From an uncultured Actinomycetes bacterium (GTDB lineage: Bacteria > Actinomycetota > Thermoleophilia > UBA2241), in assembly GCA_963767005.1 (NCBI GenBank), contig CAVYCN010000002.1:192001-256000 (forward strand): a DNA stretch of 64,000 nucleotides, read 5' to 3'. The translations under genes were made by a program, and so were the position numbers. This document shows, piece after piece, positions 1,618 through 37,413 of this stretch; positions within the stretch are counted from its first letter, which is position 1; every line of letters begins with the position of its first letter. The notes under the pieces are model-generated. The model had not been told where the DNA came from, made no database searches, and saw only the letters and a list, made by a program, of their open reading frames with translations.

Positions 1618-4600
1618 GCCCGCCCGGCGACCTCGTCGGCGCCGTGGTCAGGCCGGTCGACGACGCCGTGCGGCGGCGCGTGGCGAGCGACTTGCAAACG
1701 ACATTCCTGCTTCAGGCCGGCGCCGGCACCGGCAAGACGAGCGCCCTGGTCGAGCGCTACGTCGCCTGTCTTTCGAGCGAGGGCGCGCCGCCGGTCGCCG
1801 AGGTCGTCGCCATCACCTTCACCGAGAAGGCCGCCGGCGAGCTGCGTCAGCGCGTGCGCGGGCGTCTCGAGAGCGCGGTCGCCGACGAGACGCTCGATCC
1901 GGCCACCGGCGAGCGCCTCGGCGCGGCGCTCGCCGGTCTCGACGACGCGCCGATCTCGACCATCCACTCGTTCGCCGCCCGTCTGTTGCGCGAGCGTCCG
2001 GTCGAGGCCGGGGTCGACCCGGCCTTCACGCAGCTCGACGAGGCCGGCGCCGAGCTCCTGCGCGACCGACTCTGGCGCGATTGGCTGGCGGGGCTGCTCG
2101 ACCGCGACGACGACGCGGCCGGCGCCGGCGGCGCCGGGCCGCTCGCCCAGGCGCTGCGCGCCGGCGTGCGCATCGAAGAGATCCAGAAGCTCGCCTTCGA
2201 ACGCTTCAGCGAGCGCTACGCGGTGGCCGATGCCGCCACGCCGCCGGCGCCCGACCTGATCGCCGCCTGCGCCGGCGCGCGGCGCGCGGCCGCCGACCTC
2301 GTCGACCTGGCCCAGACGTGCGCCGACGACGGCGACCGGCTCAAGGTCTCCTGCCTCGACCTGGCGGCCGTGGCCACCGAGCTGCCCGCGACCGGCGAGC
2401 TCCACGACCTCGGCCTGTCGCTCACGGTCGCGGCGGCGCGCGCCGCCCGTCTCACGCCGAAGAACGCCGGCCGGGCGGCCGGCTGGCCCGGCGGCAAGGA
2501 ACGCGCGACCGCCGCCCGCGACGCCCTGCGCGACCTGCTCGCCGGCGCCGCCGCCGGCTACGGCGCCCACGTCGCCGCCCTCGCCCTGGCGGTGGCGGCC
2601 GGCTTCGCGCGTGCCGCCGCCGATGCTCAGCGCGACGCCGGCGCCCTCGACTTCGACGACCTGCTGGGCCGCGCCCGCGACCTCCTTGCCGGCACGCCCG
2701 GCGTCGCGCCCGAACGGGTCATCGCCGCGCGGCGGCACTTCCAGCAGCGCTACCGCTACATCCTGGTCGACGAGTTCCAGGACACCGACCCACTGCAGGC
2801 CGAGATTGCCTTTCTACTCTCCGAGCGCGAGGCCAGCGCGCGCTCCTGGCGCGACGTCGAGCTCGAGCCCGGCAAGCTCTTCCTGGTGGGCGACCCCAAG
2901 CAGTCGATCTACCGCTTCCGGCGAGCCGACATCGCCATGTACGACGAGGTGCGCCGCCTGATCGAAGCCCAGGGCGGCGCGACGCTCGAGCTCGTCCAGA
3001 ACTTCCGCACTGTGCGTTCCGTCGTGAGCTGGGTGAACGGCCTGTTCGGCGGCCTCATGCCCGAGGCCGTCGAGGGGCTGCAACCGCGGCACGCCGACCT
3101 CGTGCCGTTGCGCGACGACCCAGGGGCTGAGCCCGGCGTCCTGCTCGTGCGACCTTCGCCGGCGATGTTCGACGACGCCGACGGGCCCGACGGGGCGTCG
3201 CCCGACGATCTGAGCCGCCGCGAAGCGCGGCTGGTCGCTGACCTCCTGAGCGGCATCGAGCGCACCGGCTGGCGGGTGCGCGACGCCGCCGCCGGCTGGC
3301 GCGCGGCCAGGCCGGGCGACGTCGCGGTGCTACTGCCGACCTTCACGCGCGTCGGCTTCTACGAGCAGGCGCTGCGCGAGGCCGGCCTGCCGTATCGGGT
3401 CGACGGCGGCCGTACGTTCTACGGGCGGCGCGAGGTCCTCGACACGCTCGCCGCGCTGCGCGCCGTCGACGCCGCCGCCGACCCGATCGCGGTCTACGCG
3501 GCCCTGCACGGCGGGCTCTTCGCCCTCTCCGACGACCGGCTCTACGCCTACCGTGCCGCGGGCGGCGAGTTCGACTACCTGCGGGCCGTGCCGGTCGAGG
3601 GTTTCGCCGATGTGGCCGCGGCTCTCGCCGACCTGTGCGAGCTCCACGGGCTGCGCAACCGGCGCCCGGTGGCCGAGACGCTCGACGACCTCGTGCGGCG
3701 CACGCACCTGCTCGAGAGCCTCGCCCTGTGGGCCGACGACGGCGAGCAGGCGATCGCCAACATCGGCGAGCTCGTCTCGCAGGCCGACGAGTTCGCGCAC
3801 AGCGCCGAGGCCAGCTTTCACGCCTTCGTCGTCAAAGCGATGCACGACGCCGACGCCGCCGACACGGCCGAGTCCCCGGTCGGCGAGCCGGGCGAGTTCG
3901 TGCGCGTGATGACGGTCCACAAGGCCAAGGGGCTCGAGTTTCCGATCGTTGTGCTGGCGGCCGCGATGCTGAGCCCGCGCTCCGCCGACCGTGGCCCGCT
4001 CATCGACCGCGCCGCACACCGGCTCGACTGCTCGCTGTCGTGCCCGGCGCCCGACGCCGGCGGCGCGGCCGGCCGAGTGCGCTACCAGACGCGCGAGTAC
4101 GACGCTCGGTTCGCGCGCGAGAAGCAGGCGCTCGACGCCGAGCGCGTGCGGCTGCTCTACGTCGCCCTCACGCGGGCCGCCGACCTCCTCGTGCTGCCGC
4201 TCGTCACCGGCGAGCCGCGCGCCGGCTCGTTGCAGGGGTTCTGGCAGGGCGCGTCCGATCCAGCGGGCGACGGGCAGGGCACGCTCGAGTGGTCGGCGGG
4301 GACGGCGGGGCCGCCCCAGGCGGCCCCGCCGTCCCCGCCGACCGACCCGCTCGCGGCGCGCGCTGCGTGGCGCGACGAGCGCGTCGCACTTCTCGCGCTC
4401 GCCGCGCGCCCGGCGCCGGTGTTCGCCCCGAGCGCGCTCGAGCGCCTCGAGCCGCCCGACTGGGACGACCAAGCGCTCCCGGTCGCGTCGCCGCCGGCCG
4501 CGAGCGACGGCGCGGCCCGTGCTCGTGCTCTCGCCCTGGGCACGGCGGTGCACGCCGTCCTCGAGCTGGTCTCGCTCGACGACGACGCCGCGCTCGACGG

Positions 4601-31789: not shown

Positions 31790-33304
31790 TCAGCGCCAGC
31801 TCGTGAACCAGGCGAGGTGCGCGTAGTAGGCGTAGGGGGCCGCCTGCGAGACGATGAACGGCAGCCAGGCCACGGCCAGGCCGACCACCGCGCCCACGTA
31901 GACCCAGGCGGCGAGGGCCGGCAGGCGCATGCCGGCGGCGGCACGATTGCGGCCGGCGAGGGTGGCCGCCGCGACGACGGCGACAAGGACGGCGAGCGCC
32001 GCCAGGCGCAGCGGGGCGCCGCCGCCGGCGGCGAGGGCGACGAGTACGGCGCCGGCCAGGGCGCACAGGGCGGCGCGGCCGCGCGGCAGCGGCCGGTCGG
32101 CTACGAGGCGCGCGAGCGCGCCGGCCACCAGGATCGCGAGGAACGGGATCGCCGGCGTGAGGTAGTAGATGTAGGACTGGCGGCTCGTGGCCAGCCAGGG
32201 CAGGTAGAGGCAGGCGGCGAGCAGCGCGGGGGCGGTGCCGGCGAGGTCGCGCCGGCGGGCCGCGAGCCAGACCACGGCGACGAGGGCGACGATCGAACCC
32301 CAAAGCAGCAGCGGGTTGCCGATCGCGACGAGACCGACGACGTCGCCGTGCGGCGCGAGCGCCCAGCGATACCAGATCGGCGTCGCGTCGAAGATCCAGG
32401 TGAGCGGTCGCGAGGCCATGGTCGAGACGCCCTGCACGTTCCAGTTGAAGGTCGCCATGTAGCGCTGCAGGTGGAGCCACTGGCCGAGCGTGTGGCCGCT
32501 TGCGAAGTAGTCGGCATAGCTTGCCACGTAGACGGCGAGCGGCAGGACGACGAGGCACGCGAGGGCGGCCGCGGCGCGGCCTGCCGCGCCGCCGGCGACT
32601 TCGCCTGCCGGCCGCGCCCGCCGCTCGCGCACCACGGCCACGGCCACGATGCCGGCCGCGGCCACGAGGGCGAACAGGCCGGACCATTTGCTGGCGACCG
32701 CGCAGCCGCCGGCGAGTCCGGTGAGCACGAGCCAGCGCGCCGGACGTCTTGGGCTGCCCGACTGCACGAAGCGCAGAGCGCAGTAGATGCAGACGGCCGA
32801 CCAGAGGGCGACGAAGGGGTCGAGCACGCCGATGCGCGACTCGGTCATCAGCATAGTGTCGGCCGCGGCGAGCACGAGGGCCACGAAGGCCCAGCGCGGC
32901 GCCAGGCCGAGGCGGCGGGCGAGCGGGTAGACGAGCGCGATCAGCAGCGTCCCGGCGATGGCCGCCGGCACGCGCCAGCCCCAGGGGCCGTCGCCCAGGA
33001 CCTCGACGCCGGCGGCGATCGCCAGCGTGCCGAGCTCCGGGTGGGCGAGCGAGCGGGCCGCGCCCGGCTTCCAGGGCGCCGATCCGCGCGGTCCGAGGCC
33101 GCCGTGCACGATCACGCCGGCGTCGTGTGCGTAGTAGTGCTCGTCGAAGACGTAGGTGCGGTAGACGCCGAGGTTCACAAAACGCACGGCGGCCGAGAGG
33201 GCGACGACGACGAGCACGCCCGCGAGCAGGGCGCGCGCCGACGGCGCGCGCCCGCGCGGCGCGGCCGCCGGCGTCAGGCGGACGGGGGCCGCGGGCTCGG
33301 TCAT
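31790..33304 (-). CDS. Protein O-mannosyltransferase (GT-C/PMT family), paralog 2
   Basis: VFDEHYY, HPELG, GWR, KWSG, GNPLLLWG; ATG overlaps the stop of paralog 1. Confidence 0.85.
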   Translation of the reverse strand: MTEPAAPVRLTPAAAPRGRAPSARALLAGVLVVVALSAAVRFVNLGVYRTYVFDEHYYAHDAGVIVHGGLGPRGSAPWKPGAARSLAHPELGTLAIAAGVEVLGDGPWGWRVPAAIAGTLLIALVYPLARRLGLAPRWAFVALVLAAADTMLMTESRIGVLDPFVALWSAVCIYCALRFVQSGSPRRPARWLVLTGLAGGCAVASKWSGLFALVAAAGIVAVAVVRERRARPAGEVAGGAAGRAAAALACLVVLPLAVYVASYADYFASGHTLGQWLHLQRYMATFNWNVQGVSTMASRPLTWIFDATPIWYRWALAPHGDVVGLVAIGNPLLLWGSIVALVAVVWLAARRRDLAGTAPALLAACLYLPWLATSRQSYIYYLTPAIPFLAILVAGALARLVADRPLPRGRAALCALAGAVLVALAAGGGAPLRLAALAVLVAVVAAATLAGRNRAAAGMRLPALAAWVYVGAVVGLAVAWLPFIVSQAAPYAYYAHLAWFTSWR

Positions 33305-35022
33305 CAGATCCAGTTGCGGAACCACATGAGGTGGTAGAAGTGGGGGATCGCGATCGGCAGGTCGATGAGGATCGGCAGGAACGCGAGGCAGACGCCGGTG
33401 ACGGCGCCGGCGTAGACCCACGTGACGTAGGGCCACAGGCGTTTGGCCGGCGCCCAGAAGAACAGGCCGAGGGTGACGAGCACCGCCACGGTGATGCCGA
33501 CGGCCAGGGTCACGCGGGCGAGGTCGACCGAGAGGATGGCGGGGTCGCGCCAGAACAGCCAGTCGGCGGCCACGCCGATCTGGTACCAGAACAGCGCGAC
33601 GACCACGCAGGCGGCCGCGTAGCAGGCGGCCGCGAGCTGCCAGCGCGGCACGCGGCTCGCGGCGAGTTCGCGAAGCATGGCGGCCACGGCGAGGGCCATG
33701 AACGGCGCGACCGGCGTCATGTAGTACATGAACGACGTGCGGGTCGTGCGCAGCCAGGGCAGGTAGAGCAGGGCTACCATGATCGGCAGTACGGCGAGCT
33801 CGCGGTCGCGGCGGCGCACGGCGAGCACGACGAGGCCGACCAGGGCGGCGATGGAACCCCACCAGAGCAGCGGGTTGCCGATCGAGATGATGCCGTGCAC
33901 GCGCCCACCGATCTGCTCGTAGTAGTACCAGACGGGGCGGTAGTCGAAGATCCAGGTGTAGGCGCGCGAGGCGTAGGTGTGGGTGGCGTGGAGGCTCTCG
34001 TTGAACCACCACATCTCCTGCTGGAGCTGCCACCACTGCGAGAGCGTGTGGTGGCCGACGGCGAAGTAGTCGACGTAGCTGGCGAAGTAGAGGCCGGCTG
34101 GCAGGGCGACCAGCGACAGCGACGGCAGGCGCACCTCGGGCACGCCGACCTCGAGCGTCACGACGCCGGCGGCCGCGAGGGCGATCGCGAGCGAGACGTG
34201 CGGCAGGAGCCCGGGAGCGCGGATGCCGAGCGCGGTGAACGCGCCGCCGGCGACCACCAGGCCCACACCGGCGGCGAGCCAGGGCCAGCGCCGCCAGGCC
34301 GCGTCGGGCCGGCGCCGGTGCAGCAGGATGTAGGCGGCCGCCGCGGCGATCGCGAAGGCGCCCGACCACTTGGTGCCGAGCGCGAGGCCGCCGGCGAGGC
34401 CGCACAGCACGAGCCAGCGGGTGCGGTGCCCGCTTTGCACATAACGCAGCGCCAGGTAGACGCAGAGCACCGACCAGAAGGCGACGAAGATGTCGAGCGT
34501 GGCGATGCGCGACTGCACGATGCCGAGAAAGTCGGAGGCGGCCAGCACGAGGCCGAGCAGCGCCCAGACGGGCGGCAAGCCGAGGCGTCGGCCGATGGGG
34601 TAGACGAGGCAGAGGAGCAGCGTACCGACGATCGCCGCGACGATGCGCCAGCCGAAGGAGTGGTAGCCGAAGGCGGCCTCGCCGGCGGCGATCGCGTACT
34701 TGCCGTACTCGGGGTGCGGCCACGAGATCTCCTTGCCGGGCTCCCAGGGGTAGACGGCGGTGCCGGCGAGCGCGCCCTGCAGGATCGCGTGGGCGTCCTT
34801 GGCGTAGTAGACCTCGTCGAAGACGAGCGTGGCCGGTCGCTGGAGCTCGTACAGGCGCACCGTCGCCGACGCGATGAGGACGAGCAGGACCAGGACGACG
34901 ATCACGCCGGGGGCGCGGTCGGGACGGCGCGGCCCGTCTTCGGGAGGAGGGTCGGCGACCCGGTCGGCGACCTTTCGGGGACGCCTGGTGGGCCTGCTGC
35001 GCGGCTCTCGGGTCTTGACCAT
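33304..35022 (-). CDS. Protein O-mannosyltransferase (GT-C/PMT family), paralog 1
   Basis: VFDEVYY, HPEYGK, GWR, SRIATLD, KWSG, GNPLLWWG; TATAAT 7 nt before ATG 35022 suggests leaderless start. Confidence 0.87.
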   Translation of the reverse strand: MVKTREPRSRPTRRPRKVADRVADPPPEDGPRRPDRAPGVIVVLVLLVLIASATVRLYELQRPATLVFDEVYYAKDAHAILQGALAGTAVYPWEPGKEISWPHPEYGKYAIAAGEAAFGYHSFGWRIVAAIVGTLLLCLVYPIGRRLGLPPVWALLGLVLAASDFLGIVQSRIATLDIFVAFWSVLCVYLALRYVQSGHRTRWLVLCGLAGGLALGTKWSGAFAIAAAAAYILLHRRRPDAAWRRWPWLAAGVGLVVAGGAFTALGIRAPGLLPHVSLAIALAAAGVVTLEVGVPEVRLPSLSLVALPAGLYFASYVDYFAVGHHTLSQWWQLQQEMWWFNESLHATHTYASRAYTWIFDYRPVWYYYEQIGGRVHGIISIGNPLLWWGSIAALVGLVVLAVRRRDRELAVLPIMVALLYLPWLRTTRTSFMYYMTPVAPFMALAVAAMLRELAASRVPRWQLAAACYAAACVVVALFWYQIGVAADWLFWRDPAILSVDLARVTLAVGITVAVLVTLGLFFWAPAKRLWPYVTWVYAGAVTGVCLAFLPILIDLPIAIPHFYHLMWFRNWI

Positions 35023-35033
35023 TCGCGACATTA

Positions 35034-35098: not shown

Positions 35099-35695
35099 TC
35101 AGGCGCCGTCGGCCCGTTCGCGGGCCGGCTGTCGCGGTCCCGCTGCGGGCGCCGCCAGGGCGGCGCCGGCGCCGCGCATGCCGGCCGCGATCAGCCAGGC
35201 CAGGCCGACGGCGATCAGCAGGTCGCCCGGACTGAAGACGTTGGCGAGCGGCACGGCGTGAGGCAGGGCGAAGACGTCGCCGAGGAAGCCGAGATGCGTG
35301 GCCGCGCCGGCGACCTCGGAGTTGTTGTGGTGCCCGGTCGCCTCGACCAGGCCGGCGAGGCGCAGGGCGGCCCGGCTGGCCGGCATGTAGCCGCCGTTCA
35401 CGACGATCGTCACGGCGTTGCTGATGACCCCGGCGCCAAAGCAGACGACTGGCCGGCGGCGGATGTTCGCGGCCACGAAGGTCAGCAGGAGCGCATACGA
35501 GGCGAGGTGGAGCGCGATGATCGCGGCCCCCGGGAGGCGTTCGCCGAGCGGCGAGAAGGCGACGAGCTGCAGGGCCAGGGCGAGCACGACGAGCGCTGCG
35601 AGGCGCAGCGAGAGCCGCTCGAGGTTGCCGAGCGAGCCGCCGAGCAGCGTGCCGGCGAGCAGGCCGCCGACGACGGCTACGACGAGGACGAACAC
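35099..35695 (-). CDS. DUF5317-like membrane protein; putative signal-peptidase-II-like aspartic peptidase
   Basis: GTG start overlaps the HD-GYP stop; several TM helices; GVISN, NGGYMP, LGD and VFSPGDLLIAVG motifs. Confidence 0.72.
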   Translation of the reverse strand: MFVLVVAVVGGLLAGTLLGGSLGNLERLSLRLAALVVLALALQLVAFSPLGERLPGAAIIALHLASYALLLTFVAANIRRRPVVCFGAGVISNAVTIVVNGGYMPASRAALRLAGLVEATGHHNNSEVAGAATHLGFLGDVFALPHAVPLANVFSPGDLLIAVGLAWLIAAGMRGAGAALAAPAAGPRQPARERADGA

Positions 35696-36996
35696 GACTC
35701 GCGCGGGGTCGAAGGCAGCGCCACGAGACGGGGCTTGGCCGGGTTGCGCCAGCAGCCGATGAAGGCGTCGACGAGATCGGGGTCGAACTGGCGCCCGGCG
35801 CCGCGGCGCAGCTCGGCGAGCGCGATCTCCGACGACAGGGCCGCGCGGTACGGACGATCGGACGTCATGGCGTCGTAGGCGTCGGCGACGGTGATGATGC
35901 GCGCCCCGAGCGGGATCTGCGTGCCGGCCAGGCCGTCGGGGTAGCCACGCCCGTCCCAGCGCTCGTGATGGTGGCGGATGTAGTCGCGCCCCTTGCGGTA
36001 CATGCTGAACTGTCCGGCGAGCTCGCTGCCGTCGGCCGGATGGGCGATGATCGCGCGGCGCTCCTCTTCGGTCAGCGACGCCTGCTTGTAGAGGATGCGG
36101 TTGTCGGTCGCGATCTTGCCGAGGTCGTGCACACGCGCGGCCGAGATGACGAGGTCGATCTCTTTGCGCGGCAGGTCGAGGGCGCGGGCGATCTCGCCGG
36201 CGTACTCGGCCACCCGCAGGGAGTGGGCGTAGGTGTACTCGTCGCGCTTGTCGACGGTGTCGGCGAGCAGGGCGAGGGCGTGGTCGGTCTCGCTCTGCAG
36301 GTTGGCGTAGAGCTTGAACCCCGTGTAGATGACGAGGATCAGGAACGGGAAGTAGAGGATGTTCCAGGGGCTGTCCTGGTAGGCGAAGGCCAGCAGGGCG
36401 CCGAGCGGTGTCATCGACACGTAGAGGATGCCCATCTCGCGGAACGACGCCGTCCATTCGTGGAAGAAGGAGCGGCCCGAGAGCGTGATGATGCCGGCCA
36501 CCAGGGTGTCGTTCACGAGCAGGAAGATGGCCGCCGAGACGACGATCGCGGGCGCGTCGCGGCGCAGATCGACGGGGCCGGACACGGCGAGCAGCCGGTA
36601 GACCACGGCGGCGAGCGCCGAGGTGAGGCAGACCTGGCTGCTGTTGAACAGGACGCGGCTCCAGTGGCGCCGCGAGAGGACGAGGTCGCTGCCCACGACG
36701 CCGCCCATGGCGACGACGCTGGCGAAGGCCGGTCCGTAGAGGATGGTGGCCGCGAAGGCCACGGTGAGTGACAGCGACATGCTGCCCTCGAAGCTCGACG
36801 CGACCGCCCAGCGTTCGCTCGCGATGGCCGCGCCGAGGAGCACGACGAGGTCGGTCCAGTGGTGGCTGGGGAACGTGTGGAAGGTGGCGGCCAGGAGGAG
36901 GGCCGCGCCGGCGGTGACGCCGCCGATGTACGTTGCCACCGCAGGCGACACCCGGGTCGGGGTGGTGGGTGCCGCCTGCGGTGGCTGCTCCGTCAT
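35677..36996 (-). CDS. Membrane-integral sensor HD-GYP cyclic-dinucleotide phosphodiesterase
   Basis: About 7 N-terminal TM helices; HSLRVA, HDLGK, HHERWDGRGYPDGL, ADAYDAMTSDRPYR. Confidence 0.9.
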   Translation of the reverse strand: MTEQPPQAAPTTPTRVSPAVATYIGGVTAGAALLLAATFHTFPSHHWTDLVVLLGAAIASERWAVASSFEGSMSLSLTVAFAATILYGPAFASVVAMGGVVGSDLVLSRRHWSRVLFNSSQVCLTSALAAVVYRLLAVSGPVDLRRDAPAIVVSAAIFLLVNDTLVAGIITLSGRSFFHEWTASFREMGILYVSMTPLGALLAFAYQDSPWNILYFPFLILVIYTGFKLYANLQSETDHALALLADTVDKRDEYTYAHSLRVAEYAGEIARALDLPRKEIDLVISAARVHDLGKIATDNRILYKQASLTEEERRAIIAHPADGSELAGQFSMYRKGRDYIRHHHERWDGRGYPDGLAGTQIPLGARIITVADAYDAMTSDRPYRAALSSEIALAELRRGAGRQFDPDLVDAFIGCWRNPAKPRLVALPSTPRESCSSSS

Positions 36997-37054
36997 GATT
37001 CAGATGTCAGGCTGGCTTGCTGCCTGCGCCGGATCGACGCGTGCTACGCGCGCG

Positions 37055-37147
37055 TCAGTCCCACTTGAGCCAGGCGCCGCTCGTGACGGCGAGCGCCACG
37101 ACCAGGGCCAGCGTGATGACGACTTTGTTCGTGAGGATGCTCTTCAT
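37055..37147 (-). CDS. 30-aa signal-peptide-like precursor MKSILTNKVVITLALVVALAVTSGAWLKWD
   Basis: Translated by hand; RBS GGGAGAGGGAG; GC-rich third codon positions; paralogous to 37194-37289. Confidence 0.8.
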   Translation of the reverse strand: MKSILTNKVVITLALVVALAVTSGAWLKWD

Positions 37148-37193
37148 GTTGGATCTCCCTCTCCCAAGGTGACGAGTCGCGTGCGCCCGAGTG

Positions 37194-37289
37194 TCAGCTC
37201 CACTTCTTGAAGGCGCCGCTCGCGAGCGCGAGTGACACGATCAGCGCCACCATCGCGAGCTTAGGGTAGGTGCCTTTCAGCAACCTCAT
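37194..37289 (-). CDS. 31-aa signal-peptide-like precursor MRLLKGTYPKLAMVALIVSLALASGAFKKWS
   Basis: RBS AAGGGAGG; basic N-region, hydrophobic core, shared SGA[FW]xKW[SD] tail. Confidence 0.8.
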   Translation of the reverse strand: MRLLKGTYPKLAMVALIVSLALASGAFKKWS

Positions 37290-37385
37290 GAGCCCTCCCT
37301 TCGTGCGTCGGTCCCCACCAGACCGGTCGGGCCGTCCGTGACGTTGCCAGGCGTCGTGCGGACGGTCATGTCCGAGTGCTTCTGG

Positions 37386-37413
37386 ATATCGGCACCGGCT
37401 TTGCCGTTCTTTA
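37386..37413 (-). promoter_or_regulatory. Sigma-28 (SigD/FliA/WhiG-type) promoter for the peptide operon
   Basis: Minus strand TAAA-N16-GCCGATAT, about 95 nt upstream of the first peptide ATG. Confidence 0.72.

Follow-up and report, generated by a model that had tools for sequence, protein, structure and literature searches.

Micro-protein genes in a conserved cassette with DUF5317 and a predicted MASE9-HD-GYP phosphodiesterase in an uncultured Actinomycetes bacterium

Within a stretch of 64,000 nucleotides from an uncultured Actinomycetes bacterium of the class Thermoleophilia (contig CAVYCN010000002.1, positions 192,001 to 256,000 of the forward strand; hereafter the window), a compact set of minus-strand genes encodes two micro-proteins, pep1 and pep2, a membrane protein with MASE9 and HD-GYP domains, and a protein of the DUF5317 family. 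The initial annotation of this DNA had described such a four-gene unit with an overlapping DUF5317 gene, and all four genes are present. The view that they form a functional unit tied to the turnover of cyclic di-GMP (c-di-GMP) is supported by the exact co-occurrence of the peptides with DUF5317, by neighbouring HD-GYP or GGDEF-EAL genes on the same strand across phyla, and by fusions of DUF5317 to enzymes of c-di-GMP metabolism. The cassette is made up as follows, in window coordinates.

The cassette and its genes

37290..37400, minus strand: conserved leader 5' of pep1, from an alignment of 10 same-genus loci
37194-37289 including the stop, minus strand: pep1, ATG start, 31 amino acids (aa), MRLLKGTYPKLAMVALIVSLALASGAFKKWS
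37055-37147, minus strand: pep2, ATG start, 30 aa, MKSILTNKVVITLALVVALAVTSGAWLKWD, a paralogue of pep1
35677-36996, minus strand: MASE9-HD-GYP protein, 439 aa, with MASE9, a polytopic membrane domain, at the N-terminus and HD-GYP at the C-terminus
35099-35695, minus strand: DUF5317 protein (PF17248), GTG start, 198 aa

Gaps of 46 nt and 58 nt separate pep1 from pep2 and pep2 from the HD-GYP gene, and the first 19 nt of the DUF5317 gene are shared with the 3' end of the HD-GYP gene. DUF5317 homologues share this start point, with MFVLVVAVVGG at the same position. An open reading frame (ORF) of 452 aa at 35099-36457 is the DUF5317 frame left open into the HD-GYP gene, and was rejected as a gene.

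Both micro-protein genes have strong Shine-Dalgarno sequences, with GAAGGGAGGG preceding the ATG of pep1 and GGGAGAGGGAG that of pep2. The pep1 product combines a basic N-terminus and a single hydrophobic helix with the C-terminal tail S-G-A-F-K-K-W-S, and pep2 ends in S-G-A-W-L-K-W-D. Variable sites at the three codon positions number 13/8/22 in pep1 (29 codons, 10 sequences) and 10/9/22 in pep2 (30 codons, 9 sequences), and the two reading frames are under purifying selection. Given the Shine-Dalgarno sites, the mainly third-position variation and the matches to a family profile described below, both micro-proteins are, on sequence evidence, real genes. Public gene calls include both, where named only as 'hypothetical protein', and comparison with Pfam and NCBIfam gave no family for either, with sub-threshold noise only (Ost5, E 0.041; archaellin N-terminal domain, E 0.042). 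The order pep1-pep2-HD-GYP-DUF5317 is kept in relatives of the same genus and the same family. Peptides, HD-GYP and DUF5317 all lie on one strand in 14 of the 19 regions around DUF5317 matches in relatives; the other five comprise one region cut by a contig end, one with a divergent peptide, and three solitary DUF5317 paralogues.

The larger proteins are readily assigned to families. In the enzyme, HD_5 (PF13487) matches at 119.4 bits against a cut-off of 27.2 (E 1.7e-34, Pfam), HD at E 8e-20, and MASE9 (PF20972) over residues 75-207 at 34.8 bits against a cut-off of 24.3 (E 2.1e-8; 37.9 bits in the whole-genome search). Its HD and HHExxDGxGYP signatures are intact, and an alignment of 19 homologues, the window protein among them, shows no variation at residues H290, D291, H344, E345, G351, Y352, P353, and D372, from which the enzyme is predicted to be an active c-di-GMP phosphodiesterase. 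In the available part of the preprint on this architecture, MASE9 is given eight predicted membrane segments, two of them short, with a ligand proposed to bind within the membrane and the signal stated to be unknown (10.1101/2021.11.05.467447). The DUF5317 protein matches its family profile at 96.2 bits against a cut-off of 25 (E 2.4e-27), covering profile positions 2-150 of 151. The genome that contains the window has one DUF5317 gene, three MASE9 genes, three peptide genes and 15 HD_5 matches, and the peptides adjoin only one of its three MASE9 genes, the cassette copy. The HD_5 matches, several of them in reading frames of 1300-1800 codons, are an unusually large set for a 3.4-Mb genome.

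Upstream of pep1, about 110 nt are conserved within the genus. The leader opens with a promoter-like block (about 37360-37400) containing an invariant TGCCGATA, followed by CACTCGGAC, a hairpin, and a near-invariant GGTCTGGTGGGGACC just before the Shine-Dalgarno site. The promoter noted in the initial annotation was not borne out as described there: a sigma-70 consensus scan found 0 sites, and the lone terminator-like site is at chance level. The sequence of the hairpin varies between relatives with its pairing mostly kept, and RNAalifold recovers a hairpin of five pairs only, one of them compensatory. Single folds give a long hairpin, by eye, in eight of the 10 leaders with z-scores of −1.9 to +1.2, not better than shuffles, and for this reason we make no claim of an RNA element. 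Rfam returned no match at E <= 1 between 34500 and 38500, and hence no c-di-GMP-I or c-di-GMP-II riboswitch 5' of the peptide gene.

Distribution of the micro-proteins and their neighbours

That conserved small ORFs should lie beside DUF5317 and HD-GYP homologues, as the initial annotation had anticipated, was borne out in other organisms. A collection of 80 DUF5317 loci (554 kb in total) was drawn from records of Actinomycetota, Thermotogae, Bipolaricaulota, Bacillota, Chloroflexota, Armatimonadota, Fraserbacteria, Neomarinimicrobiota, and Spirochaetaceae. A profile of the peptide family, applied at >=18 bits, gave 60 matches in 46 of the 80 loci, 58 of them on the DUF5317 strand. In six frames of the window's own 3.44-Mb genome the same profile matched at three places, which are pep1, pep2 and one paralogue. 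The sequences behind the profile were selected by a loose pattern (a hydrophobic run, G[AGS], one to three residues, [KR]W, and at most four further residues), so that the profile is partly circular; the motif actually observed is much tighter than the pattern. The pattern itself occurs at nine places in the whole genome, three of them family members, and selected 50 small ORFs from the 80 loci, one clearly spurious and all but one preceded by a Shine-Dalgarno-like motif in a loose test.

In a set of 48 distinct peptides, the conserved G is followed by A in 47 cases and by S in one, exactly two residues separate GA from the basic residue in 47, that residue is K in 44, and 46 have no more than two residues past the W. 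The profile also reaches variants outside the pattern, with the endings …GAGHKF, …EAGRRW, and …AAPFRW. In a collection of 1.84 billion protein cluster representatives it found 100 matches at E <= 0.001; the first ten listed are 29-58 aa long, with seven in the range 29-34 aa, and in all ten the match ends at most three residues from the C-terminus. The G-A-x-x-K-W tail is near-invariant across phyla. Within the genus it takes the form A-[FA]-K-K-W-x in pep1 and A-W-[LW]-K-W-D in pep2, with little variation between strains. Longer micro-proteins of 37-48 aa occur at loci L050, L056, L059, L061, L063, L070, L074, L078, L110, and L118, in Bipolaricaulota or Thermotogae records plus one other, and carry a conserved N-terminal M-K-W-G(-G-Y) besides the C-terminal motif.

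The distribution of the peptides follows that of DUF5317. In 41 related genomes, DUF5317 is present in 18 and the peptide profile matches in the same 18, with none discordant. MASE9 occurs in 26 of the 41, eight of which have neither peptide nor DUF5317. These genomes are kin and so are not independent, and three genera that split into carriers and non-carriers, in each of which peptide and DUF5317 agree, provide at least three independent contrasts. The exact match with DUF5317 and the looser one with MASE9 argue that the peptide is tied first to DUF5317, with the MASE9 enzyme as the usual neighbour. A wider sample of 201 genomes from the phylum has DUF5317 in 75. Peptide matches at E <= 1e-3 were found in 19 genomes, all 19 of them DUF5317-positive against the base rate of 75 in 201. 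At E <= 0.01 there are 31 genomes, 25 of them DUF5317-positive; the six exceptions are weak matches (E 0.0026-0.01), and four lie in reading frames longer than 240 codons. A further 50 DUF5317-positive genomes gave no peptide match at this cut-off, a result in which a 32-position profile cannot separate absence from divergence. The phylum tallies include seven unpublished genomes (G052, G068, G096, G134, G163, G187, and G210) that no other result uses.

Enzymes of c-di-GMP metabolism recur beside DUF5317. An HD-GYP gene on the same strand adjoins DUF5317 in 40 of the 80 loci, usually in the order peptide, HD-GYP, DUF5317. For 22 further loci the ORFs were compared with Pfam; a GGDEF-EAL, GAF-GGDEF-EAL or GAF-GGDEF gene adjoins DUF5317 in 13, and none of these GGDEF-type genes was among the ORFs submitted for the other nine. 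The N-terminal membrane parts of four of five GGDEF-EAL neighbours match MASE9 (5.5e-6, 6e-5, 0.008, and 0.016, only the first above the cut-off), and the N-terminal parts of the GAF-containing neighbours gave no MASE9 match. Furthermore, DUF5317 is found within the enzymes themselves: as DUF5317-GAF-GGDEF-EAL at locus L097 (1053 aa), as GGDEF-DUF5317 in P0122, and as DUF5317-MFS-GGDEF-HD-GYP in P0130 (1177 aa). Such fusions speak for a physical link between DUF5317 and the output enzyme, which an input module would be expected to have. P0037 and P0039, members of a second class of DUF5317 paralogues (about 252-256 aa), have a C-terminal extension with a zinc-finger-like Cys-x2-Cys … His-x4-His pattern.

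Members of the peptide family also stand apart from the cassette. The third peptide gene of the genome lies outside the window at G000:C2:654565-654658 on the plus strand (locus L151, about 4066-4159; MRVPNAWFNRVAFAAFVVSCALASGAFKKWA), with a strong Shine-Dalgarno site and a weak second match (15-18 bits) directly after it. There is no DUF5317, HD-GYP or riboswitch near it, its neighbours being BNR-repeat proteins and unknowns, and Rfam gave a single chance-level match around it (E 0.54). Most genomes of the genus have one to three extra stand-alone pep1-pep2 pairs (loci L152-L167), with no MASE9, HD-GYP or DUF5317 match nearby and with the next gene often on the opposite strand. At L161 there are two tandem pairs, one of them with its tail altered to KRD. 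The 17-mer of the leader, the TCGATCTGGTGGGGATC-like element before the Shine-Dalgarno site, is also found upstream of the stand-alone pep1 copies at L158, L160, L165, and L166.

The cassette is flanked upstream by a SatP/YaaH-type gene and a urocanase gene, both divergent, and downstream by a mannosyltransferase gene (all by Pfam).

33304-35031, minus strand: PMT-type protein O-mannosyltransferase gene, beginning 67 nt past DUF5317

This gene may be co-transcribed with the cassette. In many relatives of the family, DUF5317 is followed by PMT genes, frequently as a tandem pair (L023-L025, L029, L033, L034, L036, L037, and L039), and outside the family this was seen only at L046 among the loci examined.

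DUF5317 as candidate partner of the micro-protein tail

Modelled whole in AlphaFold2, DUF5317 reaches a pLDDT of 87.5, and its C-terminal half modelled by itself reaches 87.4. The model contains five helices, the last two of which are joined by a loop (residues 100-155) with short strands. Conservation was assessed in alignments of 27 and 59 homologues. In the larger, which draws on many phyla, residues N93, N100, G102, P105, N125, D140, S155, G157, and D158 are invariant. By the positive-inside rule, with R78-R80 and the basic C-terminus placed inside, the loop and the start of helix 5, where these invariant residues are found, are predicted to face outward.

The micro-proteins would insert with an inward N-terminus and an outward C-terminus, leaving the G-A-x-x-K-W tail at the outer membrane surface of the cell. 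The invariant D140 and D158 of DUF5317, together with its NGGYMP site, would lie on this same face, and the invariant K and W of the tail may dock there. Because of the exact co-occurrence, and because the conserved sites are predicted to be on the same side of the membrane, the proposal that DUF5317 is a dedicated partner of the tail is supported at the level of sequence; this putative step is common to binding and to processing, the two main ways of reading the data.

Binding is the reading that we favour, since the tail resembles a docking motif and DUF5317 is fused to output enzymes as input modules are. A tail kept across phyla, with little variation inside the genus, suits docking better than it suits a strain-specific signal. 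In this respect, we put forward, as a tentative preference held at slightly less than even chances, that the cassette encodes a conserved membrane signalling module in which uncleaved, single-pass micro-proteins are the partners of DUF5317, and together with it tune the MASE9-HD-GYP enzyme. The amount of micro-protein would be the signal, governed by the operon leader and also, in this genus, by the extra stand-alone pairs; control of this kind would explain why the genus has several separately transcribed peptide pairs. The DUF5317-peptide complex would then pass the signal within the membrane to the MASE9 domain, changing the hydrolysis of c-di-GMP. Structure prediction of a complex of MASE9 (residues 1-235), DUF5317 (residues 1-178) and pep1 as partner gave scores of 0.01 and 0.01, run without controls, that are evidence neither way.

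Several observations weigh against binding of uncleaved micro-proteins. Translation, membrane insertion and binding of the peptides are all predicted. The proposed orientation comes from charge distribution and predicted helices only, and the charge bias is weak, with a mean net charge of +1.9 in the N-terminal part and +1.2 in the tail. No peptide match at 18 bits was found in 34 of the 80 DUF5317 loci, some of which are cut contigs, and there are DUF5317 paralogues, of the second class of about 252-256 aa, that stand alone with no peptide match nearby (L026, L030, and L038). Of the long DUF5317 homologues found, 42 of 44 are N-terminal fusions to MFS_1 or MFS_3 transporters, and L064 is a fusion of the same kind. 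The two invariant aspartates of DUF5317 lie 18 residues apart, in L-x-D140 (L-G-D) and F154-S155-x-G157-D158, as do those of a known aspartyl peptidase; the peptides have the shape of a signal peptide with nothing attached, and their L-A-S-G-A resembles a lipobox that lacks the cysteine; and several stand-alone peptide pairs per genome resemble genes for precursors. The last three points, and the MFS fusions, suit processing and export no less than they suit binding.

Alternatives and relation to known systems

In the processing account, which goes back to the initial annotation, DUF5317 would act as an aspartyl peptidase within the membrane, cleaving the micro-proteins at the invariant G-A or beside it, and the Lys-Trp tail of 4-7 residues would be exported by an MFS protein, where one is present, and sensed by MASE9, giving cell-to-cell signalling with a c-di-GMP output. 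We consider this possible, if doubtful, and not far behind binding. It gains from the coupling of the peptide to DUF5317 and not to MASE9, and from a resemblance to signal peptidase II (LspA). In the part of the source available, LspA is described as having four helices and an aspartate dyad 18 residues apart, in V116-x-D118 and F132-N133-x-A135-D136, near the outer surface (PMC6952399). Local hhalign comparison of the DUF5317 alignment with 30 LspA sequences of the same class brought both aspartate motifs into register over 39 columns at 49% probability (P 1.7e-4), a match that is local only and not decisive; the reversed LspA control gave P 0.32 and MASE9 P 0.056. In global mode the probability is 27%.

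Broader searches did not extend the resemblance. Peptidase_A8 (PF01252) gave no match to the DUF5317 protein in Pfam at E <= 0.1, and a profile search of PDB sequences returned chance-level rows only (E >= 0.38), with LspA absent at E <= 10. Foldseek against the PDB with the whole model found nothing at E <= 0.001, and VIA-align gave a best Z of 7.1 for generic helical hairpins over residues 17-79; with the C-terminal half alone the best values were Z 5.0 and E 4.5, respectively. LspA was not among the rows listed in any of these four fold searches, in which a family left unlisted is not thereby excluded. A search of the ESM Atlas gave no usable match. The genome has its own true LspA (G000:C2:349494-349886), and in 0 of the 48 peptides is the conserved G followed by a cysteine, the lipid-modified residue with which a lipobox ends. 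The initial annotation had called DUF5317 SPase-II-like, which now holds weakly, for the 39-column match on both LspA aspartates; with no Peptidase_A8 match and with LspA unlisted in the four fold searches, we keep the two-aspartate site as a local resemblance and do not class DUF5317 as a signal peptidase II.

Other features also count against processing. DUF5317 has five helices and LspA four, the latter with a beta-cradle, a released product of 4-7 residues would be very short, and fusion to output enzymes is unusual for a maturation protease. Known peptide pheromones differ in having a variable mature part with specificity groups between strains, which is not true of all such systems, whereas the tail here hardly varies within the genus or between phyla. 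That DUF5317 represents a new family of intramembrane aspartyl peptidases, releasing Lys-Trp peptides of 4-7 residues to be read by MASE9 domains, seems to us unlikely.

A third explanation would make DUF5317 one module of a transporter for small molecules, or of a sensor that resembles one, with the micro-proteins as small subunits and the c-di-GMP enzyme reading the state of transport. KdpF and AcrZ are small structural subunits of their pumps, and the same MFS fusions would fit, one of them carrying GGDEF and HD-GYP behind the MFS domain; a separate MFS gene adjoins the L097 fusion. However, there is no MFS gene in the cassette of the window, where the flanks are PMT and SatP/YaaH genes, nor was any seen inside closely spaced peptide-HD-GYP-DUF5317 arrangements, and several peptide gene copies per genome would be unusual for a fixed structural subunit, all of which makes the explanation improbable. 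It is very improbable indeed that these cationic, Trp-containing peptides of about 30 residues, encoded in pairs and with stand-alone copies that have structured leaders of their own, make up a two-peptide bacteriocin of the leaderless type, or a membrane toxin, against which DUF5317 confers immunity, the link to c-di-GMP being incidental, because the same-strand HD-GYP or GGDEF-EAL neighbourhood recurs across many phyla, DUF5317 is fused to HD-GYP and GGDEF-type enzymes, and the G-A-x-x-K-W motif is conserved across phyla, unlike fast-evolving bacteriocins.

MASE9 is an orphan sensor domain and DUF5317 a family of no known function, and the exact coupling of DUF5317 to the peptides, beside c-di-GMP enzymes in many phyla, provides concrete candidate partners, so that the control of membrane HD-GYP and GGDEF-EAL enzymes becomes a directly testable question. 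Should the peptides prove to be cleaved and set free, they would represent a novel type of peptide signalling and DUF5317 a new family of membrane peptidases; such a system would be the first to be wired directly to c-di-GMP turnover, and common to many phyla. The initial annotation knew of no peptide-sensing system with an HD-GYP output; our literature search, judged by titles and the starts of abstracts and with most subscription journals outside it, likewise found no such system and no described module of this kind. Within the same limits, no mention of DUF5317 or PF17248 was found, and MASE9 appeared in its defining preprint and one unrelated paper.

The closest known counterparts of the enzyme are the MASE9-HD-GYP phosphodiesterases TM1467 of Thermotoga maritima and HdgA of Streptomyces venezuelae, which share the architecture of the window protein (10.1101/2021.11.05.467447). 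The available part of that preprint, by Galperin and Chou, mentions no partner genes, whereas here the enzyme comes with DUF5317 and micro-proteins. At genome level, DUF5317 and MASE9 both match in the control genomes of T. maritima and Thermus thermophilus. The likeness of DUF5317 to LspA, as far as the latter is described in the portion of PMC6952399 available, lies in aspartates spaced alike in [VL]-x-D and F-[NS]-x-[AG]-D, one just before the last helix and one at its start and, for DUF5317, on a predicted outer face. The candidate substrate is likewise similar to a signal peptide, with L-A-S-G before the conserved site. The differences are the number of helices, the lack of a Peptidase_A8 match, the separate true LspA in the same genome, and peptides that have no cysteine.

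Tiny precursors are paired with a membrane processing enzyme in the AgrB-AgrD-AgrC system and in SHP or ComS/XIP signalling, where Eep carries out the processing; the conserved part of ComS/XIP is C-terminal and contains Trp. The cassette shares with these a tiny peptide with a conserved C-terminal Trp part, a polytopic sensor, and a membrane protein of ~190 residues in which polar positions are conserved. It differs in that the output would be c-di-GMP turnover and neither a kinase nor a regulator in the cytoplasm, the tail hardly differs between strains, and processing, export and sensing are putative. In the pairs MgrB-PhoQ, SafA-PhoQ and MzrA-EnvZ, a single-pass protein of about 30-65 residues, its amount set by transcription, acts on a polytopic sensor. 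The cassette resembles these in joining a small single-pass protein to a polytopic membrane sensor, with binding predicted in our case. In contrast to these pairs, its output is the hydrolysis of c-di-GMP and not a histidine kinase, DUF5317 is a third, obligate partner, and the peptide family, with its invariant C-terminal motif, has been kept across phyla.

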